Below, one piece after another: positions 33,237-46,585 of a DNA stretch of 64,000 bases; within the stretch, counting starts at the first letter, position 1, and every line of letters begins with the position of its first letter. The position numbers and the translations under genes were made by a program. Origin of the DNA: Promethearchaeota archaeon (GTDB lineage Archaea > Asgardarchaeota > Lokiarchaeia > Sigyniarchaeales > SOKP01); NCBI GenBank assembly GCA_019057795.1, contig JAHLWS010000080.1, positions 1-64,000 on the forward strand, read 5' to 3'. The notes under the pieces were generated by a model. The model ran no database searches. It saw nothing but the letters and a program-made list of their open reading frames with translations, and was not told where the DNA came from.

Positions 33237-33509
33237 ATAGTATATATAGTATAATAGGTATATAAAGTATACTTGAATTTAATATTAAAACAAGTTATAT
33301 CAGATTTTTTTTCTATTATTAAATCTTAGACATTATGAAAATTACTTTTTAATTACATTTTCAATGATTTTAACTACCCCATTTTTCCCCCACCCCCGTG
33401 GATGGTGCCCTCTCCTAAAAAAAAAATTACTATATATTGCTAGTTTTGAAAAGATATAATAACTGTCATTTACTATATTATAATGACAATTAGAAAGATG
33501 AAAATACAA

Positions 33510-33758
33510 ATGACTGAAAAAATTACTCAAAAAGTCTCATCAAATGGAAGGATTGTAATACCAAAAGAATGGAGAGACAAGTTAGCTATTGAAGATAAAA
33601 ATGAGGTTGAGATGGAATTGAAGGACGATAAGACCATTTTAATCAAAAAAAAGACACATCCTCTTGAGATTGAAGATAATTTATTTGAAGATGTGCCTCC
33701 ATTTACAGAGGAAGAGTTAGATCAAGCAAAAAAATCATTATTTCCTAGTGAGGAATAA
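33510..33758 (+). CDS. AbrB/MazE-family antitoxin
   Basis: KVSSNGRIVIPKEWRDKLAI. Confidence 0.9.
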   Translation: MTEKITQKVSSNGRIVIPKEWRDKLAIEDKNEVEMELKDDKTILIKKKTHPLEIEDNLFEDVPPFTEEELDQAKKSLFPSEE

Positions 33759-33786
33759 TCAAAAAATTGATGGTTCTTGATATAAA

Positions 33787-34188
33787 ATGATAGAAAAAGC
33801 AGTAATTGATGCTCAGGTTCTATTTTATTTCCATTATAACTATCAAAAAATTCCCCCAATACTCCAACAATTGAAAAAAAAAGTAATAAATGGAGAAATA
33901 ACAGTTATCCTACCTACAATTGCAATCGCAGAATTACTTTGGAAAATGAGAAAAGCTGGGAAAACAATCGCATTTGAGGAGGCTCTCAATCGATGGGAAC
34001 GCTCAGAAAATATCATTATCGATGATTTTAATATAACAATCATTAAATTGATGGTACAAAATGCTAAAAGTCACGAATTGCATGATGAAATCATCGCTAT
34101 GACGTGTAAAAAGCACGATACGAACATTATTTACTCCAATGATAAAAAATTTAAAGAAATATTCAATTTACAACTAAGATCTTGGTAG
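33787..34188 (+). CDS. VapC-like PIN toxin
   Basis: AVIDAQV, PTIAIAEL, ELHDEIIA, YSNDKKF. Confidence 0.88.
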   Translation: MIEKAVIDAQVLFYFHYNYQKIPPILQQLKKKVINGEITVILPTIAIAELLWKMRKAGKTIAFEEALNRWERSENIIIDDFNITIIKLMVQNAKSHELHDEIIAMTCKKHDTNIIYSNDKKFKEIFNLQLRSW

Positions 34189-34236: not shown

Positions 34237-34388
34237 TTACTGATCAGAGTAAGATAGTTCTAATTAAAGTTAAATTAGACATGATCAAATATTTAATATT
34301 GAAATAAGATGATATTTTACTAAGGAATAATAATAGTTGTATCTTCTTTTATTCGATCTAATACGATTTGGGTCTTAATTTCTTCAAC
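34237..34388 (-). repeat. Native Lrp 3' end plus downstream DNA (repeat partner)
   Basis: Matches 32261..32412. Confidence 0.95.
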
Positions 34389-34793
34389 ACCGGGAAGATT
34401 TCGCAATTTCTCAATTAGAATCATCGAATCTTCGTGATCCAGACATTTAGCCATGATAAACAAGGGATATTCGCCAGTAACTACATACGCATACTTTATC
34501 TTTTCCATACCTTCAATATGTTCCTTAATGCGTTCCAAAGGCTCAGAAGAGTTTACTCGTAAGGAAGCTATTACCATTTCGCGATATCCTAACTGACGGC
34601 AATCTATTAAAGCTACGTATTTTTTTATAAGTTTTTCTTCTAACCTTACTATTCGAGACCTTATAGCAGTAGGACTTTTTCCAACTTTAACAGAAATCTC
34701 TTTTATTGTAATTTTTGCATCGTTTTGTAGTAATTCTAAAATGTCCTTATCAATTCCATCAATCTCTGGAAGTTTCATGTTTGTTGCTGTCAT
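34320..34793 (-). CDS. Lrp/AsnC transcriptional regulator
   Basis: IDKDILELLQNDAK...RSRIVRLE; VTGEYP; divergent from the hdr operon. Confidence 0.93.
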   Translation of the reverse strand: MTATNMKLPEIDGIDKDILELLQNDAKITIKEISVKVGKSPTAIRSRIVRLEEKLIKKYVALIDCRQLGYREMVIASLRVNSSEPLERIKEHIEGMEKIKYAYVVTGEYPLFIMAKCLDHEDSMILIEKLRNLPGVEEIKTQIVLDRIKEDTTIIIP

Positions 34794-35088
34794 GGTATTA
34801 AACCAATTTTAATTTAAATTATTTTTAACTATATTTTTCTTATTATTTTTATATTTTTTAAAAATTTAATTCTCTAAAGCTTTATTAAGATTTTATTGCT
34901 TATAATTTTTTCACTAAAATCACACTTTACTTTAGTGATTTTTTATAGATAAATCAATTTCTTATAGTTAAAAAAACTACTATTTAAATATTATTTAATA
35001 TTTCTTTACTACAAAGATATCATAAATTAATTTAATTTGATATCAAAATAAGAAAAAATAGATAAAATAACTATAAAAGTGGAAAAAA

Positions 35089-35313
35089 ATGGCAGATATA
35101 ACACTTAATGCAGTAGGAAAAAAATGTCCTATGCCGGTTTTAATGACGAAAAAGGAACTAAAAAAAATGAGTTCAGGACAGACTCTTGAACTTATTGTCG
35201 ACGATACAGGTGCTATAAAAGATGTACCAGCTCTTCTGAATAAAACTGGCGATGAATTATTGGAAACTAAAGAAGATGGGGATCATTTAATATTTATGAT
35301 CCAAAAAGCTTAA
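35089..35313 (+). CDS. tusA: TusA/SirA sulfur carrier
   Basis: GKKCPMPVL (CPxP), DD.GA..DVP. Confidence 0.92.
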   Translation: MADITLNAVGKKCPMPVLMTKKELKKMSSGQTLELIVDDTGAIKDVPALLNKTGDELLETKEDGDHLIFMIQKA

Positions 35314-35342
35314 GATTAGATTATATGAGGAAAGTATTTGCG

Positions 35343-35711
35343 ATGACATCTTATTCATTCTTTATTAGTACAGAACCTTATAAATTTGAAGCTATTGATT
35401 CTCTAATTGAGATCTGTAAAGCTATGATTAGGAAGGGAAATTCAGTAAAGGGATTATTCTTTTACGGCTCGGGAGTATACAACTTGAAGAAAGACATTAG
35501 TAGTGGCACTTCAATCAGGAACATTCCAAAGAAGTTAGAAGAATTTTGCGGTGAAAATAAGATACCTGTTGTCGGTTGTAGTACGTGGGTTAGTCTTACA
35601 GGCTTAAACGAAAGCAATTTCATCAATGGAGCAACCGAAGAGGGATTAGGGGACTTCTCAAATTGGGCTATAGAATCAGACAAATTAATTGTTTTCGGAA
35701 CGGGGGGCTAA
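35343..35711 (+). CDS. dsrE: DsrE/TusD sulfurtransferase
   Basis: TEPY, FFYGSGVY, conserved Cys in GCSTW. Confidence 0.85.
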   Translation: MTSYSFFISTEPYKFEAIDSLIEICKAMIRKGNSVKGLFFYGSGVYNLKKDISSGTSIRNIPKKLEEFCGENKIPVVGCSTWVSLTGLNESNFINGATEEGLGDFSNWAIESDKLIVFGTGG

Positions 35712-35716
35712 AAACT

Positions 35717-36085
35717 ATGGTAGAATCTGTTGTTATTATAACCGATCAATCGCCAACGGGTAAGAATTCTGCTGCTGAAGCGATCCGAATTGGTTCGGGA
35801 TTTGTAGCTCTTGGAGAAATTATTAATTGCCAAATAGTTCTCACTGGAGACGCGGTTTATCTTTTAAACAAAAAAGCAAAACCTACAGCCGTTGGTATGG
35901 ACCCCGTAGATGAAACTATCGAAATGGCTGACTTATCGGACTTAGAATTATATGTTTTAGATAAATCGTTAAAAGATGCCGGTTTAACCGTTGAAGATTT
36001 AATTGAATACGAGAACTTAAAGGTCATTAGTATTGAAGCATTAATCGATTTAATCGAACAAGCAGACACCTGCTTTAGGTTTTAA
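35717..36085 (+). CDS. dsrF: DsrF/TusC
   Basis: SPTG...AEAIR, GDAVYLL, KSLKDAGL. Confidence 0.8.
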   Translation: MVESVVIITDQSPTGKNSAAEAIRIGSGFVALGEIINCQIVLTGDAVYLLNKKAKPTAVGMDPVDETIEMADLSDLELYVLDKSLKDAGLTVEDLIEYENLKVISIEALIDLIEQADTCFRF

Positions 36086-36100
36086 CGGGGTAATATAAAA

Positions 36101-36451
36101 ATGACGCAAGAATTGAGTGAATTTAATTTTTTATATTTATTTGGGTTTAGCGAAATTACAGGGAACCATTTAGAGCGATTATTACCAATATTGAAAGGCC
36201 AGATTAAAAAAGGAAGCCAAATTGGGCTCGTTTTGATTCACGATGGGGTGATTGGTATTAATAAGAGAGGCCGAATTACAAAGGCAATGGAAGAGCTTCT
36301 CAGCTTGAAAGTTACATTATATGCGATGATCCCCGATTTGAAAGCCCGTGGAATAGCTTTGGAGCAAACTCACGATAAAATTAAACGAATTGAATACGAC
36401 GACTTAATCGATCTTTTAGATAATAGGCTAAAAATAATATCTTGGATGTAA
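36101..36451 (+). CDS. dsrH: DsrH/TusB
   Basis: LIHDGV, DLKARGI, IEYDDLIDL, ends ISWM. Confidence 0.85.
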   Translation: MTQELSEFNFLYLFGFSEITGNHLERLLPILKGQIKKGSQIGLVLIHDGVIGINKRGRITKAMEELLSLKVTLYAMIPDLKARGIALEQTHDKIKRIEYDDLIDLLDNRLKIISWM

Positions 36452-36554
36452 TTAGTCCGAGACAAGAATTAAGATTTTTTTAATAACATATCAAGAGAAA
36501 TTAGTTAAAAATTTAGTAAAAATATAAAAAAAAACAGAAAAAAAAGTGTTTAAA

Positions 36555-36971
36555 ATGGCTGAAAAAATGAGTTTTATTGTAAGTGATAAATCCTTCGAGA
36601 AATTTATGATGGCAACGATTCTTGGGACTACTGGAGCAGCAATGGACACTGAAATGAACTTTTTCTTTACTTTTTGGGGTTTAAACCTCTTAAAAAGAAA
36701 GTTTAAGCCTAAAGCAACTGGCATGCCAACCGGAATGAAAGGGATGGGTGCTATGATGTTTAGGAAAAAGTTAAAGAAATTTGGGATTGATAATCCTTGG
36801 AAATTAATCAAGGACGCTGTTGAAGACGGTAAAATGAAGCTTTATCCATGTCTAATGACTATGGATTTAATGGGTATAAAAAGAGAACAAATGTGGGACT
36901 TTGTTGAAGATCCAATTGGAGCAGCAGGTTTCATGGAAATTAGCGAAGGAGCAAATGTAATATCGTTATAG
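36555..36971 (+). CDS. DsrE2-like sulfurtransferase
   Basis: FFTFWGLNLL, YPCLMTMDLMG, GAAGF. Confidence 0.9.
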   Translation: MAEKMSFIVSDKSFEKFMMATILGTTGAAMDTEMNFFFTFWGLNLLKRKFKPKATGMPTGMKGMGAMMFRKKLKKFGIDNPWKLIKDAVEDGKMKLYPCLMTMDLMGIKREQMWDFVEDPIGAAGFMEISEGANVISL

Positions 36972-37038
36972 ATATTACTCTAAATTTTTTTTTTTTTTAT
37001 TATTCAAGATAATTAAACAGTAAAAAAGATGGTAAAAA

Positions 37039-37605
37039 ATGTCTGATACGAAAGAATACCACCGAGAATTTAAAACTAACGAAGATTTTGATAAAGATTA
37101 TTTTAAAAATATAGAAAGAAAGTCTAATATTTGGCAATGCATTCAATGTGGAACATGTACGGCGAGCTGTGAAAGTGGTAGATGGACCGCATTAAAAACT
37201 CGTATGATTATACGAAAAGTTGTTCTTGGAGATTTATCAGTGCTAAGCGATCCTGATATTTGGTTGTGTACTACATGCTATCAATGTTATGAGCGTTGTC
37301 CTCGCGATGTGAGGCCCACAGATGTTATTATGGAATTGAGGAACTACGCAACTAAACTGGGAAATATATCACCAAATCATAGGGCTGTTGTAGGGTACTT
37401 AACAAACTATGGACATGCGGTACCGATAAATGACGAAATAAAACAACGAAGGGTTGAATTAGGATTAGACGAACTTCCTCCCACTGCGTTTAAATTTAAA
37501 CAAGAAGGGGACGGAAAAGATTTGAAGAAATTTGAAGAACATTTGTTTGATCTTCCTCCAGTTAAGGAAATTAAGGAGGAAAAAAAGAAGGAGGAGGAGA
37601 AATAA
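37039..37605 (+). CDS. hdrC: Heterodisulfide reductase subunit C
   Basis: CIQCGTCTASC, WLCTTCYQCYERCPR, GHAVP. Confidence 0.95.
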   Translation: MSDTKEYHREFKTNEDFDKDYFKNIERKSNIWQCIQCGTCTASCESGRWTALKTRMIIRKVVLGDLSVLSDPDIWLCTTCYQCYERCPRDVRPTDVIMELRNYATKLGNISPNHRAVVGYLTNYGHAVPINDEIKQRRVELGLDELPPTAFKFKQEGDGKDLKKFEEHLFDLPPVKEIKEEKKKEEEK

Positions 37606-37608
37606 GTA

Positions 37609-38526
37609 ATGGTAAAAGAAAATACATTTGCGTTTTTTTTAGGGTGTCTCATGCCTAATAGATATCCTGCTATTGAAAAAGCTACGATGTATGTTATGGA
37701 AAAATTAGGTTATACTTTATTAGATATGGAGAGAGCTACATGTTGTCCCGCTCCAGGAGTATTTCGCTCGTTCAACAAATTTGATTGGATGGTGGCAGGT
37801 GCTAGAAACCTCTGTATAGCTGAAAAACTTGATGTGGATATTATTACTGTCTGTAATGGATGTTTTGGAACGCTCCAAGAGATTAACAAACATTTAAAAG
37901 AAAACGAAGAGCATAGGGAATTGGTAAACGAAAAACTGAAACTTCTTGGCGATTATGAGTTTAAAGGAACGATCGATGTCCGACATATTGCCGAAGTGTT
38001 AGGATATGAAGTTGGTCCTTGGGGTATTGAAGAAGTTATAATTAGAAAAGTTAACGCCCGCGCTGCGGTACATTACGGCTGTCACTTTCTAAAACCAACT
38101 AGAATTAGAGAGATTGAAAGCTCTGAGGGACCAACGATCGTAGAAGAGTTTATTGAAGCGTTAGGGGTAGAATCTGTAAGATTTAAAGAACAATTAACTT
38201 GTTGCGGCGCTGGCGGAGGGGTAAAAGCGTACTCTGGCGACGCAAGCATGACGATTTTTGGAGAAAAAATGAAAAATATTGATGAAGTAAAACCTGATTT
38301 TATATTAGATATATGTCCCTTCTGTCATCTCCAATTTGAGACGGGACAAGATTATCTCAATAAAAATAAAGATTGTAATTACGATTATCCAGTTATTCAC
38401 ATTTCGCAACTTGTTGCGTATTGTATGGGGATGGACCAAGAATTTGTTGGTCTTCAATACCAATTAATGGGCAGAGATTACATTTTTGGTCGGCAAGAAA
38501 TCAAAAAAGAAGAGGAGGTCGTGTAA
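37609..38526 (+). CDS. hdrB: Heterodisulfide reductase subunit B
   Basis: FLGC, CCPAPG, CNGC, HYGCH, CCGAGGG, CPFCHLQF. Confidence 0.95.
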   Translation: MVKENTFAFFLGCLMPNRYPAIEKATMYVMEKLGYTLLDMERATCCPAPGVFRSFNKFDWMVAGARNLCIAEKLDVDIITVCNGCFGTLQEINKHLKENEEHRELVNEKLKLLGDYEFKGTIDVRHIAEVLGYEVGPWGIEEVIIRKVNARAAVHYGCHFLKPTRIREIESSEGPTIVEEFIEALGVESVRFKEQLTCCGAGGGVKAYSGDASMTIFGEKMKNIDEVKPDFILDICPFCHLQFETGQDYLNKNKDCNYDYPVIHISQLVAYCMGMDQEFVGLQYQLMGRDYIFGRQEIKKEEEVV

Positions 38527-40563
38527 TTGACTGTTAAAGAAGAAAAAGTAAAGCCAATAGAAGATATTGAAGAAAAAACTGTATTTCAAGATTCAAAAGA
38601 TGAAGAGCCTCGGATTGGCGTTTTCATATGCCATTGCGGGCATAATATTGCTGGAACTGTAGATGTCGCGAAAGTAGCAGAATACGCAGGAACTTTACCC
38701 AATGTGGTAAAAGCAGAGCATTACATGTTTATGTGTTCAAAGCCAGGCGTTCAGATGATTAAGGATTCCATTAAAGAATTAGGAGTTAATAGAACTGTCG
38801 TAGCAAGTTGTTCTAAAAACCAGCACGGCAGAACATTTGCGAGAGCTATCGCTGAAGAGGGTATTAATAAACACCGCCACCAACAAGTTAATATACGGGA
38901 ATATTGTAGTTGGGTTCATAAAAAAGAAGAAGAAAAAGCGACTGCAAAATCGCTTCGTTTGGTAGAAGCTGGAGTTAATCGAGCTCGAAAACTTGACGAT
39001 GTAGAAACAAGGCGAGTTACGACCACTAAAGCAGCTTTGGTTATTGGAGGGGGTATCGCGGGACTCCGATCTGCTCACGATATGGCAGAATTAGGAATAC
39101 CAGTGTTTTTAGTTGAGAAAAACTCTACGATAGGAGGTCATATGACGAGGTTGAATAAAACATTTCCAACCTTAGAGTGTCCTCAATGTTCAATATCTCC
39201 TTTAACTAACGGTGTGGCGAATCATCCATTAATTGAGCTTTATACAAATGCTCAAGTTAAAAATGTTGAGGGCTCGTTAGGAAATTTTGAAATTGAAATC
39301 GAAATTAAACCTCGGTATGTTAAAGATAATTGTACATCTTGTGGTGAGTGCTCCTTACATTGCCCAGTAGAAGTACCAAGCGAATGGGATAAAGGTATGT
39401 CTATACGGAACGCTATTTATAAAGCATATCCTCAAGCAATTCCCGCAACATTCGTACGGGACAAGAAGGCTTGTATTGAGTGTAATACATGTATTAACCT
39501 ATGTCCAGTTCAAGCGATTGATTTTTCGATGCAACCTGAAACTAAAACTGTTAAAGTTGGCTCAATTATAGTTGCTGCGGGTTTTAGCGAATACGATCCT
39601 ACGGAAATTGAACCCTACCACTATGGGCAAGAGGGATACGAAGATGTCATTACTCAATTGAAATTGGAAAGAATGTTATCACCAACTTCTTTAACAAATA
39701 GCGAAGTATTGCGACCATCTGACGGAAAATTTCCTAAAAGCATTGTAATAATTCAATGTGTAGGTAGTAGAAACGACCAAGTCGGCAATCAATATTGTAC
39801 GGGCGTTTGTTGTAAATTTGCGATAAAAAACGCTCGAATCGTAAAAGAAATGTATCCTGACACCGATGTAACGATTTGTTACATTGATATAAGAACTCCT
39901 GGATTAAATTTCGAAGAATTATATAAATCTGCTCAAGAAGTTGGGGTCAGATTCATCAGAGGGAGACCTTCAGAAATCATTAAGGATCCTATTAGTGGAG
40001 AGTTAACAGTTATTGTAGAAGACACTTTGAGCATGACGCCTTTGCAATTGTCAGCTGATTTGGTAGTATTATCAGCAGCTATGGTGCCTCCCGAAGGAAT
40101 AGGGCCGCTAGGTTCTAAACTTCACGTATTACGCTCAAAAGAAGGATTCTTAAAAGAATTTCACATAAAAATGAACCCTACATTAAGTAGCAAAGGAGGA
40201 ATATTTTTAGCAGGTGCGATCCAAGGGCCAAAAGATATTACTGAGACTGTAGCTCACGCGGGAAACGCTGCCGCTCTAGCCGCTGCACCATTGGTAAAAG
40301 GCTACATAGAAAAGGAAATGTTAGTTCCAACGATAGATTACGAATTATGTGTTAATTGTGGAATTTGCAAAACAATTTGTGCACCAGCTGCTATTGATAT
40401 TGACGAAAACGGAAGACCTACAGTCAACGAAGTAGCGTGTAAATCATGCGGCATGTGCATGGCAAGTTGCCCAACGAGTGCAATTCAATTGATTAATTTC
40501 ACAGAGGATCAACTATACGATGAAATAATCGCTGTATCAGGCGGAGGTGCCGTGTGCGAATGA
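38527..40563 (+). CDS. hdrA: Heterodisulfide reductase subunit A
   Basis: GVFICHCG.NI, GGGIAG, KTFPTLECPQC, QCVGSR, CTGVCC, ferredoxin motifs. Confidence 0.96.
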   Translation: MTVKEEKVKPIEDIEEKTVFQDSKDEEPRIGVFICHCGHNIAGTVDVAKVAEYAGTLPNVVKAEHYMFMCSKPGVQMIKDSIKELGVNRTVVASCSKNQHGRTFARAIAEEGINKHRHQQVNIREYCSWVHKKEEEKATAKSLRLVEAGVNRARKLDDVETRRVTTTKAALVIGGGIAGLRSAHDMAELGIPVFLVEKNSTIGGHMTRLNKTFPTLECPQCSISPLTNGVANHPLIELYTNAQVKNVEGSLGNFEIEIEIKPRYVKDNCTSCGECSLHCPVEVPSEWDKGMSIRNAIYKAYPQAIPATFVRDKKACIECNTCINLCPVQAIDFSMQPETKTVKVGSIIVAAGFSEYDPTEIEPYHYGQEGYEDVITQLKLERMLSPTSLTNSEVLRPSDGKFPKSIVIIQCVGSRNDQVGNQYCTGVCCKFAIKNARIVKEMYPDTDVTICYIDIRTPGLNFEELYKSAQEVGVRFIRGRPSEIIKDPISGELTVIVEDTLSMTPLQLSADLVVLSAAMVPPEGIGPLGSKLHVLRSKEGFLKEFHIKMNPTLSSKGGIFLAGAIQGPKDITETVAHAGNAAALAAAPLVKGYIEKEMLVPTIDYELCVNCGICKTICAPAAIDIDENGRPTVNEVACKSCGMCMASCPTSAIQLINFTEDQLYDEIIAVSGGGAVCE

Positions 40564-41012
40564 GTGATTGTGAAACTTCTGACGAATATATTAAAGAGAG
40601 GATTCAAAACATTGTTGTTTTCATGTGTAACGAGTGCGGTCAAGGCTCAGCAAACACCGCTGGTGTCGCTCGAATGTCGTACGACGCTGCAATAAGAATA
40701 ATTAGAGTACAATGCACAGGTCAAATTGGACCCATTCAGATTACGGACGCTTTGAACAATGGAGCCGACGCAGTAGCTTGCGTAGGATGTTGTTTAGGAG
40801 CATGTCATTTCTTTAACGGAAATATTTTATCAATGCACCGAATAAAATTAATGAAAAAGCTTTTTAAGGAATTGGGATATAGCGACCAGTTTGTAAACCA
40901 ATACACGTCGCGAGCTGCTGAAGGTGAAACTTCTGTTGGCGATTTTGAAGACATTATAGATCGATTAACAACTGCAATTATACAAAAGGGGACGATAAAA
41001 GATGGATGTTAG
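40560..41012 (+). CDS. mvhD: MvhD/FlpD [2Fe-2S] subunit
   Basis: FMCNECG, RVQCTG, GADAV..VGCCLGACHF..GN. Confidence 0.9.
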   Translation: MSDCETSDEYIKERIQNIVVFMCNECGQGSANTAGVARMSYDAAIRIIRVQCTGQIGPIQITDALNNGADAVACVGCCLGACHFFNGNILSMHRIKLMKKLFKELGYSDQFVNQYTSRAAEGETSVGDFEDIIDRLTTAIIQKGTIKDGC

Positions 41013-42243
41013 AATTTTTCAATTTAACGGTTGTAATAAATGCTACAATGAAACATTACTACTTAAAGAAGACTCAGAATATAGTATAGAATTCGTCTCT
41101 GATCCTAAAAATTGGAAAGGAGAAAAAGTCGATATTTCGGTAATAACAGGGTATTTAATCCCAGATGACTTAAAGCATTTAAACAAAATTAAAGATAATT
41201 CAGAAAAAGTTATTGCTTATGGAAATTGCGCAGCGACCGGAGGCGTATTTGCTTTAGCAAACCAGAAAGGACACGATGTTACTCCTTTACAAAACTTAAT
41301 TGGAGACTCGCAAAATATCAATGGCTGTTTAGGAGAGATTGAAGAGTTAAAGAATACAATCGATGAGAAGGAAATACATAAACTTAAAAATTTATGCGAA
41401 GTTTGTTCCCGAAAAGCAACTTGCGAATATTTAGAAGAAATAAAGCGACAAATAGAATTAGACGATTCCAGTACTTGTTTTAACGACTTAGGTTTTCTCT
41501 GTAGTGGTTTTATCGCAAAAGAATGTAAAGAGAGATGTATTGATTACAACACTCCTTGTAGGGGCTGTAAGCCAAGCATAGACCGTTCTGGGATTCGAAT
41601 GCTCGGACTGTTCGGAACATTGGCGGGGAATGTAGAGATTGCGACTGAACATTCAGTTAAAGGAGCTACAGATAAGCTTGCAGACGAAGATGACGACTTA
41701 ACTGATGGTTTACCTGATATAGTCGGTAACTTTTTTAGGTTTACACTACCTACTTCTGGTTTACCAAAGGGTAGAATACCTTCGTCAGGAACGCTGTTAG
41801 AAGACCTATTTATTGGTAGGCTAATAGAAGAGATTCCTTTGATAACAGGACTTTTAGGCGGTAGTAAATCGATCTCATTAACGCTTAAATTCATTGAATC
41901 CTACGAAAAAGCGAATGAAATAAAAGTAAGCGAACAAGTCAAAAAATTTCGCAGTGAATTGCTAACATTAGAAGATGAATTGCTAAACGCAATTGATAAA
42001 GAAGATTCTACTAAATATAAAGAAGTCACTGAGAAAATAAGAAAAATTGCCGGGAATATGAATTTATCGAATTTGTATTTTGGTGGTTTCAAAACAAAAA
42101 TTAATGATAGCGATAATTTTGACGATTATAAAACCCATATTTTTGAAATAGTGGAAGGAACCTATAAAAATGGTTCTGTAGAATATAAAATAGATTCAGA
42201 TGGTATTTTAACAGAAATAAAAATAAAAGAGGGATTAGTATGA
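41002..42243 (+). CDS. MvhG/group-3 hydrogenase small-subunit-like Fe-S protein with C-terminal extension
   Basis: GCNKC, AYGNCAATGG, NGC, CEVC, CF...LCSG...C...C......CRGC. Confidence 0.8.
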   Translation: MDVRIFQFNGCNKCYNETLLLKEDSEYSIEFVSDPKNWKGEKVDISVITGYLIPDDLKHLNKIKDNSEKVIAYGNCAATGGVFALANQKGHDVTPLQNLIGDSQNINGCLGEIEELKNTIDEKEIHKLKNLCEVCSRKATCEYLEEIKRQIELDDSSTCFNDLGFLCSGFIAKECKERCIDYNTPCRGCKPSIDRSGIRMLGLFGTLAGNVEIATEHSVKGATDKLADEDDDLTDGLPDIVGNFFRFTLPTSGLPKGRIPSSGTLLEDLFIGRLIEEIPLITGLLGGSKSISLTLKFIESYEKANEIKVSEQVKKFRSELLTLEDELLNAIDKEDSTKYKEVTEKIRKIAGNMNLSNLYFGGFKTKINDSDNFDDYKTHIFEIVEGTYKNGSVEYKIDSDGILTEIKIKEGLV

Positions 42244-44705
42244 GCTTTGAACTATTACAAAAAGAAATTATTGACGCAGGTTTATGCCAAGGTTGTGGTT
42301 TGTGTGTAGGTTATTGCAAGCACGTAGAAATGGAAACACTGCGTCCAGTATTAAAAGATTATTGTATTTTAGAAAGAGAGGGACAAAAATGCGGTAAATG
42401 CTACGAGAATTGTCCTCAAGTAATACAGAAAAAATTCAAAGAAATGCAACCAAAAGGAATGTATTCCTTAAGAAGCACAGACTCCGAAATTTTAGCAAGG
42501 GCTTCAAGTGGTGGATTTGTAACCACAATCGCCAGGCATCTTTTAAAAGAAAAAGAACTGTCTGAAATCGTCATGGTACAAAATATTAACGACTTACCAA
42601 AAGCAAGTATAGTAACAGACCCAGATGATGTTGTTCAAAAAGCTGGGGTTGTATACGGACGATCAGGCGTTTTACAAAAATTAGTGGAGGTAACAGGAGA
42701 AAATTTCGAGCCTTTAGGAATTATTGGAGTTCCCTGCGAAATTAGAGGCGCTGCTGAACTTGAAGAGGAAATGAAAAGAGAAATCCTCAAAATGGGGTTA
42801 TTTTGTAATTCAAGTATTCGAACTGAATATACTGATAGAGGATTAATTCAATCACCGTGCTCTGGTGGATGTCCTTCAGGAGTTGATGCTCGAGGTTATA
42901 TTGCCTTAATCCGTGATGGACATTATTTTGAAGCTGTGGATTTAATACGTGAAAAGAATCCTTTACCCTCTATTTGCGGAAGAATCTGTACGCACGAATG
43001 TGAGCATGGATGCTCATTAATAGGATCAGATACCCCCGTTGCTATTCGAGAATTAAAGAAATTTGTTACCGAATATGAAATTGAACATGGTAAAGCTATA
43101 AGTGCTAAAGACGGCAAAAAACTAGGAAAGAAAGTTGCAATCATAGGTTCTGGACCAGCAGGTTTAACAGCGGGCTATTTTCTATCCCTTAAAGGGTATT
43201 CGCCCACTATTTTCGAAAAAACGGATCAAACAGGTGGAATGTTAAGATTTGGAGTACCTCAATTCAGATTACCTAATTACATACTCGATTACGATGTAGA
43301 GACTATTAAAAATGTTGGAGTGGAAATAGAATTTAACAAACCGTTAGGTCCTAATATGACTATTGAAGATTTAAAAAAAAATGGCTTTGAAGCGATTTTT
43401 ATCGCAACAGGCCAATATAAACCTCGTACATTACATCTTGAAGGTGAGGACCTACCAAATGTATTTGTTGCTATTAATTTCCTTATCGATAGGAAATATC
43501 GCGAATGGACAAAATTAGAAGAATTTAAGGGTAAAACAATTGGTATTATAGGTGGAGGTCCCGTAGCCGTCGATGTAGCTCAAACAGCTCTGAGATTGGG
43601 CGCTGAAAAAGTACACCTTGTAGATATTATGTCTGAAAAAGATCTTGAACTTACATTGAGAGAGATTCCAGATGAAGAATATAAATACATGGAATACCAT
43701 TTTGGAACATCAACCTCTAAAATAACCAAAGGAAAAGGCGATGGATTGATATTAAATAGTCACAAAATTGAATGGGGAGAACCTGACGATACTGGCAGAC
43801 GCCCGCTAAATAAAGTTGAAGGCTCTGATTACGAAATTGCAATCGATTCTATAGTTATTGCGGTTGGACAAACAGTGGATTTCAATTTAATTGATATAGC
43901 TACAAATAACAAACTCAAAAAAGAACGGAACAAGATCGATGTCAATCCTATAACATTTGAAACTAATATTCCAGGTGTTTTTGCTGGCGGGGATATTATC
44001 TCGAACTCAAAAGCCGTTGCTATCGCAGCAATTGCTCACGGAAAAGAAGCTGCAACCTCGATAGACCGTTATTTAAAAGGACAAGATCTTACAACTGGTC
44101 GTTTTAAAGAAGATAGAATGTTTTTCGCTGGACAAAAGAAACCGCCAAAAGACTTTTCTTTAAAACCAGAATCATTAGAAGAAGCTACAGAGAATATTGA
44201 ATGGAACTTTGATGAAATCGATTCGATGTTTAACGAAGACATGGCGTTAGCGGAAGCGAAACGTTGCTTAAGCTGTAACCACTACTGTTTACATTGTCAA
44301 GATTTTCCTGCGATCTATTCGGACTTTACAGCCGGCGAAGTAGGCTCTGAAAAAGGATTTACTACGGTTGTAGCATGGACGGATAGAGGAAAAGAAATTA
44401 TTGAAAACTCAATTAAAAAAGGTTTGTTTGAAGTAGGAAGCGTTAACGAGGAAGAATTAAAGGAAGCTATCAATCTGAAGTCAAAAAGAGAATTAAAAAT
44501 CCTAAATAAAACGCCCAGACAAGAAGTCTTAAATTATATCGTACGCTTAGGACCAGCCACTATTAGTAAAATCGCTGGAATTTTGGATTTAGGAGCGAAA
44601 AAGGTTCGATACGAAGCCTTAAGGTTAGTTCAATTAAACCAGATTGAGATGAAAGTTGAGCCTGGTATGGACGAGCCAATTTTTTCACCTATCTGTGAAG
44701 ATTAA
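42240..44705 (+). CDS. Ferredoxin-FrhB/FdhB protein with a nested GltD/SudA/NfnB module and C-terminal wHTH
   Basis: SSGGFVT, GVPCE, GLFC, then PCSGGCP, CGRIC...CE, GSGPAG, GGG, FAGGD, EAKRCLSC, then CLHCQDF...GEVGS..GFTTV; TISKIAGILDL. Confidence 0.88.
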   Translation: MSFELLQKEIIDAGLCQGCGLCVGYCKHVEMETLRPVLKDYCILEREGQKCGKCYENCPQVIQKKFKEMQPKGMYSLRSTDSEILARASSGGFVTTIARHLLKEKELSEIVMVQNINDLPKASIVTDPDDVVQKAGVVYGRSGVLQKLVEVTGENFEPLGIIGVPCEIRGAAELEEEMKREILKMGLFCNSSIRTEYTDRGLIQSPCSGGCPSGVDARGYIALIRDGHYFEAVDLIREKNPLPSICGRICTHECEHGCSLIGSDTPVAIRELKKFVTEYEIEHGKAISAKDGKKLGKKVAIIGSGPAGLTAGYFLSLKGYSPTIFEKTDQTGGMLRFGVPQFRLPNYILDYDVETIKNVGVEIEFNKPLGPNMTIEDLKKNGFEAIFIATGQYKPRTLHLEGEDLPNVFVAINFLIDRKYREWTKLEEFKGKTIGIIGGGPVAVDVAQTALRLGAEKVHLVDIMSEKDLELTLREIPDEEYKYMEYHFGTSTSKITKGKGDGLILNSHKIEWGEPDDTGRRPLNKVEGSDYEIAIDSIVIAVGQTVDFNLIDIATNNKLKKERNKIDVNPITFETNIPGVFAGGDIISNSKAVAIAAIAHGKEAATSIDRYLKGQDLTTGRFKEDRMFFAGQKKPPKDFSLKPESLEEATENIEWNFDEIDSMFNEDMALAEAKRCLSCNHYCLHCQDFPAIYSDFTAGEVGSEKGFTTVVAWTDRGKEIIENSIKKGLFEVGSVNEEELKEAINLKSKRELKILNKTPRQEVLNYIVRLGPATISKIAGILDLGAKKVRYEALRLVQLNQIEMKVEPGMDEPIFSPICED

Positions 44706-44738
44706 TTAAAAATTCAAAAATAAAAAGAGGTAAAAACT

Positions 44739-44975
44739 ATGAAATTTGATCAAGAATTAAATGTGTGTGGTTTAGTTTGTCCCGTACCTGCGTTGAAAAC
44801 CAAAAAGCAACTCATGAAGATGCGACCCGGTACCGTATTAAAGGTGATAACTGACTATAGACCCGCAAGTGAGTCAGTTCCACGTGATTTAGCAAAGACT
44901 AAACATAAACATTTAGGGACCGATTTTCTCGAAGATGACGAGCAATGGTTAATGTATTTTGAGTCAGTAAAATAA
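44739..44975 (+). CDS. tusA: Second TusA/SirA sulfur carrier
   Basis: CGLVCPVP, LKVITD. Confidence 0.9.
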   Translation: MKFDQELNVCGLVCPVPALKTKKQLMKMRPGTVLKVITDYRPASESVPRDLAKTKHKHLGTDFLEDDEQWLMYFESVK

Positions 44976-45185
44976 AACTACAAAACTTTTTTTTATTTTT
45001 TTTATTTATTTTTTGAACAACTGATTTCATTAAGACTAAATATAAACATTTAAGGATGGATTTTACGAGCTCTGCAAAATTCCGTTTACTTCTCATTATT
45101 TAAATATTTTAAAAACCTAGATCAACTTATTATATTGATATGATTCGAGAATAATATTTGAAGATAATAGCCTACGATGAGATAA

Positions 45186-45838: not shown

Positions 45839-46585
45839 ATGGAAAAAGATTCAGAACATTACGGAGATAAATTCCAACAAAAATCTAAATATGTTAGAAA
45901 CAGAATGCCCCAACATATTTTAGATTGGTCGAGAAGGCCGAAAACATATAAAACATATCCGAACGCAATAAAACAAATCGAACTTCCAAAACCTGATTTT
46001 GAGAAAACGATTGATTTTTGGAGAGTAATTAGAAATCGGCACTCAACCAGAAAATTCACTAAAGATCCTATATCTTTAATGGATCTCAGTTTGCTCTTAT
46101 TTGGAATGTCTGGGTTAAACAGGATTTTTCCTCAATTTGCTTTTAGAACGGTACCATCGGCGGGCGGTTTGTATCCAATCGAAATCTACCCTGTAGTTAA
46201 TAATGTTACCAGTTTAGAAAAAGGTGTCTACCATTATAATATTAAAGAACATTCACTAGATTTATTAAAAGAAGGAGATATTAGAGGTAAGGTGGCTGAG
46301 GGGTGTCTTGGTCAAAATATGGCTTTTATTTCAGCTGTGAATTTTATTTGGACGGCTATGATTGGCCGCTCTCAATGGAAGTATTTACAGAGGTGTTATA
46401 GATATATATATTTAGATGCAGGGCACATTGGACAGAATTTTTATCTGATTGCTGAAGCGCTTGGTTTGGGAGCTTGTACTGTTGGAGCAATTTATGATGA
46501 TGAATTGAATATCTTGCTCGAAATCGACGGAATTAATGAAACTTCGATCTATGTTGGTGTATTAGGTAAAAAATTTAAAGAATAA
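45839..46585 (+). CDS. SagB/ThcOx-family nitroreductase
   Basis: RHSTRKF, RTVPSAGGLYPIE, DAGHIGQN. Confidence 0.92.
   Translation: MEKDSEHYGDKFQQKSKYVRNRMPQHILDWSRRPKTYKTYPNAIKQIELPKPDFEKTIDFWRVIRNRHSTRKFTKDPISLMDLSLLLFGMSGLNRIFPQFAFRTVPSAGGLYPIEIYPVVNNVTSLEKGVYHYNIKEHSLDLLKEGDIRGKVAEGCLGQNMAFISAVNFIWTAMIGRSQWKYLQRCYRYIYLDAGHIGQNFYLIAEALGLGACTVGAIYDDELNILLEIDGINETSIYVGVLGKKFKE

Follow-up and report, generated by a model that had tools for sequence, protein, structure and literature searches.

What an Hdr enzyme does in an archaeon that makes no methane, and what it oxidises and reduces when no hydrogenase is encoded with it, is the question raised by a gene block of this Asgard (Lokiarchaeia) organism. 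We hold it about evenly balanced that the block encodes a cytoplasmic, hydrogenase-independent, electron-bifurcating Hdr of the methanogen type, with carrier-delivered sulfur or disulfide as the inferred substrate, and carrier-borne sulfur is a testable candidate for what the enzyme acts on. New here are a fused dead-hydrogenase remnant, a GltD insertion, a conserved oligo-T tract, and the universal loss of Arg240 in HdrB.

Gene content and transcription units

From Pfam and NCBIfam scans of the window (the whole stretch of 64,000 nucleotides analysed), 13 genes were identified in the order divergent Lrp, then tusA-dsrE-dsrF-dsrH-dsrE2-like-hdrC-hdrB-hdrA-mvhD-mvhG-like-FrhB/GltD-tusA. Every gene named in the initial annotation, including the divergent Lrp gene, was matched with its position and orientation:

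34320-34793, minus strand: Lrp/AsnC-family regulator, divergent from tusA1 (Pfam HTH_AsnC-type and AsnC_trans_reg)
35089-35313, plus strand: tusA1, sulfur-carrier protein (PF01206, 6.6e-24)
35325-35711, plus strand: dsrE, TusD-like (PF02635; TIGR03012 below cut-off)
35717-36085, plus strand: dsrF, TusC-like (PF02635; TIGR03010 below cut-off)
36101-36451, plus strand: dsrH, TusB-like (PF04077; TIGR03011, 51 against a cut-off of 49.2)
36546-36971, plus strand: DsrE2-like soluble sulfur carrier, DrsE_2 family (PF13686, 4.2e-24)
36985-36998, plus strand: T14 tract between dsrE2 and hdrC (sequence read)
37039-37605, plus strand: hdrC, two [4Fe-4S] clusters (TIGR03290, 177 bits against a cut-off of 160)
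37609-38526, plus strand: hdrB, catalytic subunit with two CCG domains (TIGR03288, 361 against a cut-off of 345)
38527-40563, plus strand: hdrA, full-length bifurcating flavoprotein (E 1e-194, residues 26-667 against 5odc_A)
40554-41012, plus strand: mvhD, [2Fe-2S] connector (PF02662, 1.3e-30)
41002-41598, plus strand: small-subunit (MvhG/FrhG-like) domain (Oxidored_q6; VhuG and FrhG matched weakly)
41599-42243, plus strand: cysteine-free [NiFe]-hydrogenase large-subunit remnant, fused C-terminally to the small subunit (Foldseek, VIA-align)
42240-42860, plus strand: FrhB N-terminal part, ferredoxin domain and FrhB_N (Pfam FrhB_FdhB_N, residues 74-145)
42861-44285, plus strand: GltD/NfnB-type NAD(P)H-FAD module with two [4Fe-4S] clusters, an insert in FrhB (Fer4_20, Pyr_redox_2)
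44286-44705, plus strand: FrhB C-terminal part and C-terminal tail (FrhB_FdhB_C, residues 665-737)
44739-44975, plus strand: tusA2, of an Asgard-specific TusA subfamily, last gene of the hdr unit (PF01206, 1.7e-18)
44987-45003, plus strand: T8-A-T8 tract 3' of tusA2 (sequence read)

Between hdrC and the fusion, neighbouring genes either overlap or are separated by 3 nt, as had been described, and the scans found no NiFe large-subunit gene within the block, in agreement with the earlier statement that mvhA is missing there. The identity of dsrF stands, but its listed ORF starts at a TTG (35663), whereas the ATG at 35717 is where orthologue alignments begin. The name dsrE2 holds as a family-level call only, the score against the NCBIfam DsrE2 model being 56 where the cut-off is 210.

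The genes had been taken for one co-oriented operon; the co-orientation is correct, but the single unit is doubtful. The T14 tract probably serves as an archaeal terminator, belongs to the hdrC promoter region, or both; at least nine T are present in 45 of 54 orthologous dsrE2-hdrC spacers. An Lrp gene occurs at all 41 Lokiarchaeial loci whose flank is long enough, and three relatives that are cultured or closed, namely MK-D1, L. ossiferum and Harpocratesius, have it between dsrE2 and hdrC. A T7 run is found 3' of dsrH, and the T8-A-T8 tract likely marks the end of the hdr transcription unit. The block probably comprises two or three transcription units and, because the tract between dsrE2 and hdrC is conserved, only tusA2 is clearly in that of hdr. 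The parting of tusA1-dsrEFH-dsrE2 from the hdr unit by an oligo-T tract, and in some genomes by Lrp, speaks against a substrate delivered by the carriers.

The Hdr core and its input arm

HdrABC is, judged by its sequence, of the canonical methanogen type. HdrB matches a solved methanogen HdrB over its full length at E 1e-90 and all ten of its CCG cysteines are invariant in orthologues, while HdrA matches sHdrA (6tjr) only partially (5e-40). The full-length methanogen-like HdrA and the absence of a lipoate-binding protein from the block set the system apart from sHdr, as had been proposed. To call it a third type of Hdr system, as the initial annotation did, was too strong, given the closeness of HdrB and HdrA to solved structures and a comparable input-arm swap already characterised as Elp-Hdr (PMC12350162); that interpretation is partly supported, and the block has an HdrABC of methanogen type whose input arm has been exchanged, as in Elp-Hdr, not a wholly new type. 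In HdrB, equivalents of Arg14, Gly46, Gly198 and the tunnel residue Phe233 are kept in 80 of 80 orthologues, position 201 is Lys or Arg in 78 of 80, and the CoB-phosphate contact Arg240 is replaced in all 80; five of the six published CoM/CoB contacts (residues from PMC13261682) are kept or conservatively replaced.

The MvhG-like protein (413 aa, 41002-42243) begins with an Oxidored_q6 domain, whose best fold match is MvhG (5odc_E) and whose 12 invariant cysteines are enough for three FeS clusters. Its C-terminal part holds no cysteine and has no Pfam match, and only 22 representative clusters match it among 1.84 billion proteins. Every top Foldseek match of this part is a NiFe large subunit or NuoD, and VIA-align gave Z of 10.3-12.6 over 147-155 residues against SHI alpha, Hyd-2 L, FrhA and MvhA. 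In the MvhG-like protein, a hydrogenase small subunit and a cysteine-free remnant of a [NiFe] large subunit are joined in one chain, which bears out the earlier view of a complex without its own hydrogenase large subunit.

In the FrhB/GltD fusion (821 aa, 42240-44705) the GltD module is nested in an FrhB part that is close to Fsr-N and FrhB; the module matches NfnA (9n5u) at E 8e-91 and NfnI-L (5jca) at 2e-66, and the C-terminal tail matches a winged-helix family weakly. The module is restricted to Lokiarchaeia, and the orthologues of Thorarchaeota and of the more distant metagenomic lineage L120 carry plain FrhB, its N- and C-terminal parts being contiguous in Thorarchaeota. It is a Lokiarchaeial insertion into an ancestral FrhB. 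Harpocratesius has the gene cut to a 142-aa remnant (residues 1-78 and 760-815) with a weak HTH_24 match, the rest of the block being kept, which is a point against the reading proposed here. The suggestion that NAD(P)H or F420H2 replaces H2 is supported, the flavoprotein being a plausible entry point for either and two CofE (F420 ligase) genes being present in the genome.

The closest parallel in architecture, ElpABC-HdrABC of Methanothermobacter marburgensis (Nomura et al. 2025, PMC12350162; PDB 8RVU/8RVV/8RVY), carries on its HdrABC an F420H2 dehydrogenase of the FrhB family, an MvhD homologue and an FdhA that is truncated and dead. It shares with our block the type of HdrABC and the replacement of the hydrogenase by a dead redox-enzyme remnant, an FrhB/FdhB-family flavoprotein and an MvhD homologue. 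The remnant here, however, comes from a [NiFe] hydrogenase (small subunit plus cysteine-free large-subunit stub) and not from FdhA, the Lokiarchaeial FrhB contains the GltD/NfnB insert for NAD(P)H, the organism is without CoM/CoB/Mcr, and sulfur-carrier genes accompany the block; between ElpB (8rvu_E) and the FrhB part the match is weak (5.7e-11). MvhAGD-HdrABC of hydrogenotrophic methanogens (5ODC/5ODR) has clear homologues of HdrA, HdrB, HdrC, MvhD and the small-subunit domain; the block differs from it in lacking a functional MvhA, in the lost Arg240 and in encoding another electron donor.

Sulfur carriers and conservation of the block

The TusA-TusBCD(DsrEFH)-TusE/DsrC relay of E. coli and Allochromatium combines TusA with a DsrE/F/H trio, the active cysteines lying in TusA and DsrE. 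The block has the same proteins with both active cysteines: Cys13 of the CPxP motif in TusA1 is invariant in 57 of 57 orthologues and Cys85 of DsrE in 58 of 58. Unlike in that relay, no TusE/DsrC was found in the genome, DsrH has no cysteine (nor was a conserved cysteine column found among its 57 orthologues), and Cys38 of DsrF is conserved (58/60). The DsrE2-like gene is single-copy in the genome and its Cys102 is invariant (63/63). In TusA2, Cys14 is invariant in 86 of 86 orthologues and Cys10 is kept in 69; Lokiarchaeial and Thorarchaeotal copies are 56-61% identical, and only 144 relatives were found, all with Asgard or generic names where a source was given. TusA2 forms a very conserved subfamily specific to Asgard archaea.

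Counted over species-representative Lokiarchaeial genomes at loci with enough flank, HdrABC and MvhD lie beside the MvhG-like gene in all 55 loci, tusA2 follows downstream in 61 of 63, dsrE2 and tusA1 are present in 41 of 41 and dsrEFH in 40 of 41; the genes are associated far more than chance would allow. Within Lokiarchaeia, conservation of the block is strong and extends to the cultured Promethearchaeum syntrophicum and Lokiarchaeum ossiferum. Thorarchaeota have the block with its gene order reshuffled and without the GltD insert or the DsrE2-like gene, and the carrier-hdr link is also found in L120, so that the synteny check suggested earlier upheld the linkage. All three gene orders have tusA2 and dsrE/F adjoining hdr, with tusA2 inside the hdr unit in each lineage.

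Electron path, substrate and rival readings

In the path that we propose, the proteins would form one complex. NAD(P)H would enter at the FAD of the GltD module (and F420H2 at the FrhB flavin where, as in the ancestral form, GltD is absent), and electrons would pass through the FeS clusters of FrhB/GltD to three [4Fe-4S] clusters of the small-subunit domain, held by its fused, nickel-free large-subunit fossil, and through the [2Fe-2S] cluster of MvhD to the bifurcating FAD of HdrA. One electron would go uphill to ferredoxin and the other via HdrC to the two non-cubane clusters of HdrB, where an S-S bond would be cleaved. The bond may be that of a sulfane sulfur (persulfide, polysulfide or thiosulfonate) or a disulfide from the TusA/DsrE carriers, with TusA2 as the most likely dedicated partner, and carrier-derived sulfur would be released as sulfide. 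A fermenting syntroph could in this way re-oxidise NAD(P)H on sulfur while half the electrons are lifted to ferredoxin.

The substrate is not expected to be CoM-S-S-CoB, since McrA and ComA (the latter sought in the suggested check of CoM/CoB biosynthesis) were not found in the genome and Arg240 is replaced throughout. The earlier idea that HdrB acts on a TusA/DsrE-bound persulfide gains from the conserved gene linkage, but we infer the hand-over itself from gene neighbourhood only, and the largely retained CoM/CoB pocket points equally to a small-molecule disulfide; the residues at positions 14, 46, 198, 201 and 233 would fit a long anionic one better than a protein cysteine. It is possible, if on the whole doubtful, that the same complex and path serve to reduce a low-molecular-weight heterodisulfide (a CoM/CoB-like pair or another cytoplasmic Asgard thiol), with the TusA/DsrE proteins as the sulfur source for synthesis or repair of that cofactor or of FeS clusters. 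HdrB is near-maximally close to methanogen HdrB for a non-methanogen, methanogen Hdr takes several analogues with altered head groups according to PMC13261682, and published Asgard work names an 'unidentified heterodisulfide' (PMC11291895); yet there is no known candidate thiol or biosynthetic pathway, and five carrier genes, especially tusA2, would stay attached to hdr through three rearrangements without explanation. We consider it improbable that the carriers are mere neighbours of hdr, perhaps under a common Lrp, and serve ordinary thiolation (tRNA, molybdopterin, thiamine, FeS), although they are publicly annotated as tRNA 2-thiouridine synthesis proteins and the oligo-T tract lies between them and hdrC. 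To the same side, and against our main reading, belong Harpocratesius, where a cysteine-desulfurase-like gene and a ThiF gene among the carrier genes hint at biosynthetic sulfur traffic, and a complete genome of the same genus (G008) that keeps tusA1-dsrE2 without dsrEFH or any hdr-block orthologue. A place in the Tus tRNA route is opposed by the lack of TusE/DsrC and of a strong MnmA match in the genome, and by a separate ThiF-TusA-ThiI-like operon and a second DsrEFH set on contig C79; moreover, tusA2 keeps its place within the hdr unit, and three of five near-complete relatives without the hdr block also lack dsrE2.

Same-family carriers feed sHdr-LbpA in sulfur oxidisers with TusA/DsrE3 (PMC11094781), another Hdr-type enzyme whose genes are linked to those of TusA and sulfur transferases of the DsrE family, and Hdr complexes are reversible in principle. 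An oxidative direction, with sulfane sulfur or thiols of the carriers as donor, NAD(P)+ or F420 as acceptor and ferredoxin as co-donor (confurcation), is nevertheless quite unlikely: the subunits are of methanogen type, with full-length HdrA, a single HdrBC pair and MvhD, the block is without LbpA, the hyp gene and hdrC2B2, and no genes that would form or handle sulfite downstream were seen in it. Since the organisms ferment anaerobically and have a surplus of reductant (PMC7015854), the reductive direction is probable. Very unlikely is an H2-dependent Mvh-Hdr completed by an MvhA from another locus that binds the MvhG-like protein, as published Asgard metabolic reconstructions assuming MvhADG-HdrABC might suggest. 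The genome does hold two real MvhA genes, but each directly follows its own MvhG beside Hdr parts, neither being the orphan that the initial annotation wanted searched for; the fused remnant would fill the large-subunit face, and the FrhB/GltD donor is encoded within the unit.

Delivery of the substrate by sulfur carriers has already been sketched in a 2025 preprint for a related Asgard, Nerearchaeum marumarumayae (10.1101/2025.07.22.663070, Fig. 5 legend). The model differs in using H2 through a group 3c hydrogenase, with sulfite or thiosulfate as substrates; in the passages considered here, neither the fusion with the dead hydrogenase nor the FrhB/GltD donor is described, and nor is the block's conservation. 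In the entries of Supplementary Table 3 of Imachi 2020 considered here, the MK-D1 orthologues (DSAG12_01139-01151) have RPKM values of 182-348, within the range of most other genes compared.

Gene content, conservation and transcription of the hdr-sulfur carrier block

The genome, which belongs to the Lokiarchaeia/Promethearchaeia, comprises 4.95 Mb in 87 contigs with about 30% G+C. Our ORF listing and Pfam/NCBIfam scans bore out the genes and coordinates that the initial annotation had claimed for the block, in which the plus-strand order is tusA1, dsrE, dsrF, dsrH, a gene for a DrsE_2-family carrier (hereafter dsrE2), hdrC, hdrB, hdrA, mvhD, an MvhG-like gene, an FrhB/GltD fusion gene, and tusA2. 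From hdrC to the fusion gene, neighbouring genes overlap or lie 3 nt apart, and tusA2 follows 33 nt further.

Features of the block (ORF listing, Pfam/NCBIfam scans)
34320-34793, minus strand: Lrp/AsnC regulator, divergent
41002-42243, plus strand: MvhG-like protein, 413 aa
42240-44705, plus strand: FrhB/GltD fusion protein, 821 aa

A MazE-type antitoxin and PIN-domain toxin pair (33483-34188) lies directly upstream of the Lrp gene, and a nitroreductase-family gene (45839-46585) lies downstream of tusA2 past a GNAT gene, a position it also occupies in about 15 related loci.

Searches recovered full-length relatives of the MvhG-like protein from Asgard records only, among them the cultured Promethearchaeum syntrophicum MK-D1, Ca. 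Lokiarchaeum ossiferum, Ca. Harpocratesius, Ca. Sigynarchaeum, and Thorarchaeota. We mapped their neighbourhoods by tblastn over 97 loci, and the counts below refer to Lokiarchaeial species-representative loci with enough flanking sequence.

Genes found with the MvhG-like gene in Lokiarchaeial loci
HdrABC and MvhD: 55/55
tusA2, directly downstream: 61/63
dsrE2: 41/41
tusA1: 41/41
Lrp: 41/41
dsrEFH: 40/41

The sole dsrEFH exception is MK-D1, in whose published table TusB is nonetheless listed. In Thorarchaeota, the order is hdrCBA-mvhD-mvhG-like-FrhB-tusA2-dsrE-dsrF-dsrH, and in the most divergent relative found, a metagenome locus (L120), it is dsrE-dsrF-hdrCBA-mvhD-mvhG-like-FrhB-tusA. The sulfur-carrier genes thus stay with hdr in Lokiarchaeia, Thorarchaeota, and L120, as the proposed linkage predicted, and no other evidence for a functional link is as strong as the retention of the same partners through three gene orders. 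Five near-complete relatives lack the MvhG-like gene; in this small mixed sample an orthologous HdrB was missing from all five, dsrE2 was absent in three, a contig ended inside dsrE2 in one, and a bare tusA1-dsrE2 pair was present in one, a pattern that at most weakly supports co-loss. The complete genome of a relative of the same genus (G008:C20, 9156-9879) carries a bare tusA1-dsrE2 pair with neither dsrEFH nor an orthologue of the hdr block.

The block had been described as one operon, which likely holds for hdrC to tusA2, whereas oligo-T tracts suggest that tusA1-dsrEFH and dsrE2 stand apart. dsrE2 is followed 14 nt downstream by a T14 tract, and at least nine T are retained in 45 of the 54 orthologous dsrE2-hdrC spacers; a T7 run follows dsrH, T8-A-T8 follows tusA2, and a single T8 run occurs within hdrC-tusA2. 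The Lrp gene of MK-D1, L. ossiferum, and Harpocratesius is located between dsrE2 and hdrC. The likely units, as judged from these tracts, are tusA1-dsrEFH, dsrE2, and hdrCBA-mvhD-mvhG-like-frhB/gltD-tusA2. The entries for the MK-D1 orthologues (DSAG12_01139-01151) in Supplementary Table 3 of Imachi 2020 give RPKM values of 182-348, in the range of most of the other genes compared, which shows that the block is transcribed during amino-acid-fermenting syntrophic growth.

The input arm of the complex

The N-terminal half of the MvhG-like protein is a hydrogenase small subunit, with MvhG of 5ODC (5odc_E) as its best fold match and 12 invariant Cys, enough for three FeS clusters; MvhD matches PF02662 at 1.3e-30. 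The small subunit with its three-cluster ligands and the MvhD of MvhADG/Frh hydrogenases are therefore both encoded, but the four Ni-Fe-binding Cys are not, and a PF00374 gene is absent from the block. The C-terminal ~214 residues of the MvhG-like protein contain no Cys and match no Pfam family. Relatives of this domain are rare (only 22 representatives among 1.84 billion proteins); it sits at the C-terminus in every full-length relative, the remaining relatives being fragments.

Modelled alone, the C-terminal part reached a mean pLDDT of 70, mostly above 70 for residues ~70-210, and the top ~45 Foldseek rows were almost exclusively [NiFe] large subunits and complex I NuoD homologues. In VIA-align, P. 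furiosus SHI alpha, E. coli Hyd-2 L, FrhA, and MvhA aligned over 147-155 residues with Z of 10.3-12.6, and 137 chains reached Z >= 8; helical domains can attain such values by chance. Foldseek with the whole 413-aa model returned no large-subunit match, its alignments being mostly of 130-200 columns to small subunits and complex I homologues. Nevertheless, true descent from a large subunit is favoured by the uniformity of the match list and by an alignment that spans all of the confident domain. The fold matches, together with the Cys-free domain, indicate that the MvhG-like protein is, as modelled, a fossil hydrogenase in which a small subunit is joined to a large subunit that is halved and free of nickel. 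The earlier suggestion that the complex has no hydrogenase is thus upheld by both the missing PF00374 gene and the Cys-free large-subunit-like domain.

A catalytic subunit could conceivably be supplied from elsewhere, since the genome encodes two NiFe large subunits. Neither is the orphan mvhA that the initial annotation had proposed to search for, as both sit beside their own MvhG: on contig C60 the order is yeeE/tusA (divergent)-mvhG-mvhA-hdrC-like-hdrB-like, and on C82 mvhA comes after a wHTH-HdrA-MvhD fusion gene and its own mvhG. Because each MvhA adjoins its own small subunit and the block already carries the fused remnant, completion of the complex by a distant MvhA appears unlikely from this gene arrangement. 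The 438-aa MvhG on C60 also bears an extension, which we compared with that of the MvhG-like protein and found to be unrelated.

The C60 locus (C60:580-6685) has minus-strand genes for a YeeE/TsuA-type transporter and TusA and, diverging from them, mvhG (438 aa)-mvhA-hdrC-like-hdrB-like, with no hdrA; here a real hydrogenase is paired directly with an HdrBC module beside a thiosulfate-type importer, making it a second sulfur-linked Hdr-type cluster. The C82 locus (C82:31932-36533) carries, in this order, genes for an 848-aa wHTH(DUF7347)-HdrA-MvhD fusion, MvhG (254 aa), and MvhA (434 aa), with a glycine-cleavage operon (T, H, P1, P2) just downstream. Beyond the block, the genome holds at least 11 HdrA-like, 11 MvhD-like, and at least 11 HdrB/CCG-like matches, a very large repertoire for a non-methanogen.

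The nearest matches to the GltD part of the fusion protein are NfnA of Nfn-Bfu (8e-91) and NfnI-L, and those to the FrhB part are 8rja_E, the F420H2-dehydrogenase half of Fsr, and FrhB. The Thorarchaeotal and L120 orthologues are plain FrhB proteins matching fusion residues 1-207 and 683-808, so the GltD module, of about 475 residues, was inserted in Lokiarchaeia. The genome carries two CofE genes, an indication that the organism makes F420. In Harpocratesius (locus L016, 8865-9293), FrhB/GltD has shrunk to a 142-aa ferredoxin domain with a weakly wHTH-like tail, the other block genes being intact; in Promethearchaeum sp. (L012/L088, 1650-4090), tusA2 is immediately followed by a second FrhB/GltD paralogue, which is broken into two pieces by a split or frameshift.

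HdrABC type and comparison with known systems

Both HdrC (TIGR03290, 177 against a cut-off of 160) and HdrB (TIGR03288, 361 against 345) pass the NCBIfam equivalog thresholds. The two CCG motifs of HdrB are complete and supply ten Cys for a pair of non-cubane [4Fe-4S] clusters, all conserved without exception across 21 aligned orthologues; together with the two [4Fe-4S] clusters of HdrC this is the methanogen-type arrangement. HdrA scores below the cut-offs of the NCBIfam HdrA/HdrA2 models; we assigned the type of HdrB and HdrA by similarity to solved structures, and both match methanogen subunits over their full length (1e-90 and 1e-194, respectively), HdrA residues 26-667 aligning to 2-646 of 5odc_A (E 1e-194). 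HdrA has four Fer4 stretches, with N-terminal, inserted, and C-terminal ferredoxin domains around the FAD domain, and sHdrA (6TJR) matches it only partially. The best 120 relatives in the HdrB search are all Asgard.

The sulfur-oxidising sHdr system comprises hdrC1B1A-hyp-hdrC2B2 (or B3), a short sHdrA without ferredoxin domains, and LbpA, whereas the block has one hdrCBA set and a 678-aa HdrA. No GCV_H-like gene that could encode an sHdr-type LbpA occurs in the block; two GcvH homologues sit on contigs C82 and C73. The full-length HdrA, the single hdrCBA set, and this absence agree with the earlier view that the system is not sHdr. In FlxABCD-HdrABC, the NADH-dehydrogenase subunits FlxA-C are encoded beside hdrABC; the block shares only MvhD (the FlxD equivalent), and its NAD(P)H module is of the GltD type.

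Among characterised designs, the nearest is the F420H2-fed Elp-Hdr of M. marburgensis (PDB 8RVU/8RVV/8RVY/8RWN), in which a truncated, cofactor-less FdhA (ElpA), an FrhB/FdhB-type F420H2 dehydrogenase (ElpB), and an MvhD homologue (ElpC) are mounted on HdrABC (PMC12350162). The block likewise encodes an FrhB/FdhB-family flavoprotein (FrhB_N and FrhB_C), with putative F420H2 use, and MvhD together with HdrABC. ElpA is a molybdopterin-less truncated FdhA, whereas the block has no FdhA-like gene and its scaffold derives from a hydrogenase; the Asgard module is the hydrogenase-derived counterpart of Elp-Hdr. The enzyme is therefore not the third type of Hdr system that had been proposed, but a methanogen-type HdrABC with a swapped, hydrogenase-derived, hydrogenase-dead input arm. 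It is a second independent case, after ElpA, of a dead catalytic subunit retained as an electron-wire scaffold.

The HdrB pocket and candidate substrates

We transferred the published CoM/CoB contacts of M. thermolithotrophicus HdrB, namely R14, G46, G198, R201, F233, and R240 (PMC13261682), by HMMER alignment onto 80 orthologues.

CoM/CoB contact positions in 80 HdrB orthologues
Arg14, Gly46, Gly198, tunnel Phe233: invariant, 80/80
Arg201: Lys 73, Arg 5, Leu 2
Arg240 (CoB phosphate contact): Thr, Ser or Gly in 80/80, never Arg

The CoM/CoB site is thus incomplete at Arg240. A search of the genome, whose marker-gene completeness is 100%, for McrA (PF02249) and ComA (PF02679) found neither, and by these two markers the organism differs from one with Mcr and CoM biosynthesis. 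These absences and the loss of Arg240 point to a substrate other than CoM-S-S-CoB, and HdrB is predicted not to act on this heterodisulfide.

The carriers beside it retain their reactive positions: an active-site Cys is present in both TusA and DsrE/TusD as in a sulfur relay, and DsrH is Cys-free.

Conserved cysteines of the sulfur carriers (orthologues)
TusA1 C13: 57/57
TusA2 C14: 86/86
DsrE C85: 58/58
DsrE2-like C102: 63/63
DsrF C38: 58/60

TusA2 has a second Cys, C10, in 69 of 86 orthologues, mostly Lokiarchaeial; its mean column identity is 80%, and Lokiarchaeial and Thorarchaeotal copies are 56-61% identical. Its subfamily is small (144 matches), and every source name given is Asgard or generic.

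Such carriers could instead serve housekeeping tRNA thiolation. Eight TusA paralogues and a second DsrEFH set are encoded in the genome. A TusE/DsrC acceptor (PF04358) for such a relay was not found in the genome, nor was a strong MnmA: PF03054 gave weak generic PP-loop matches (E 1e-6 or worse) and, being unspecific (matches in 14/14 control genomes), supports only the absence of a strong MnmA. On contig C79, a separate ThiF-TusA operon with a ThiI-like PP-loop ATPase bearing an NFACT-R RNA-binding domain (C79:79333-81439) is, from its gene content, a likely biosynthetic thiolation route. This operon and the two absences make it unlikely that the hdr-linked set is a housekeeping tRNA relay. 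The second dsrE-dsrF-dsrH set (C79:85625-86726) lies 4 kb downstream of that operon.

The carriers as the source of the HdrB substrate are a well-motivated reading, to which we give something short of, or at best, an even chance. Tentatively, the physiological substrate may be protein-borne sulfur (a persulfide, trisulfide, or thiosulfonate) on TusA2, which TusA1, DsrEFH, and DsrE2 would load and HdrB would reduce, so that NAD(P)H/F420H2-driven sulfane-sulfur reduction would be coupled to ferredoxin reduction. The main rival is a small-molecule disulfide. By its conserved contacts, the HdrB pocket still looks suited to a ligand with an anionic end and a chain that threads the tunnel, which keeps the rival live, at a probability that we regard as rather low.

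Published reconstructions build Asgard energy metabolism largely around MvhADG-HdrABC and, for organisms that lack CoM and CoB, let Hdr reduce an 'unidentified heterodisulfide' (PMC7015854, PMC11291895). Among the best-conserved Hdr sets of Lokiarchaeia and Thorarchaeota, the block stands as a non-hydrogenase complex, predicted to be NAD(P)H/F420-fed and built on a fossil hydrogenase, and it makes the sulfur carriers a concrete candidate route to the substrate that can be tested. If reduction of carrier-bound sulfur proves true, it would answer which substrate Hdr reduces in Asgard archaea and would be the first case of an electron-bifurcating heterodisulfide reductase acting on a sulfur-carrier protein. 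A biochemical test is feasible now, because the block is transcribed in cultured P. syntrophicum and encoded in L. ossiferum. In Harpocratesius (L016, 16414-18989), genes for a class-V aminotransferase (cysteine-desulfurase-like) and ThiF lie between dsrH and dsrE2.
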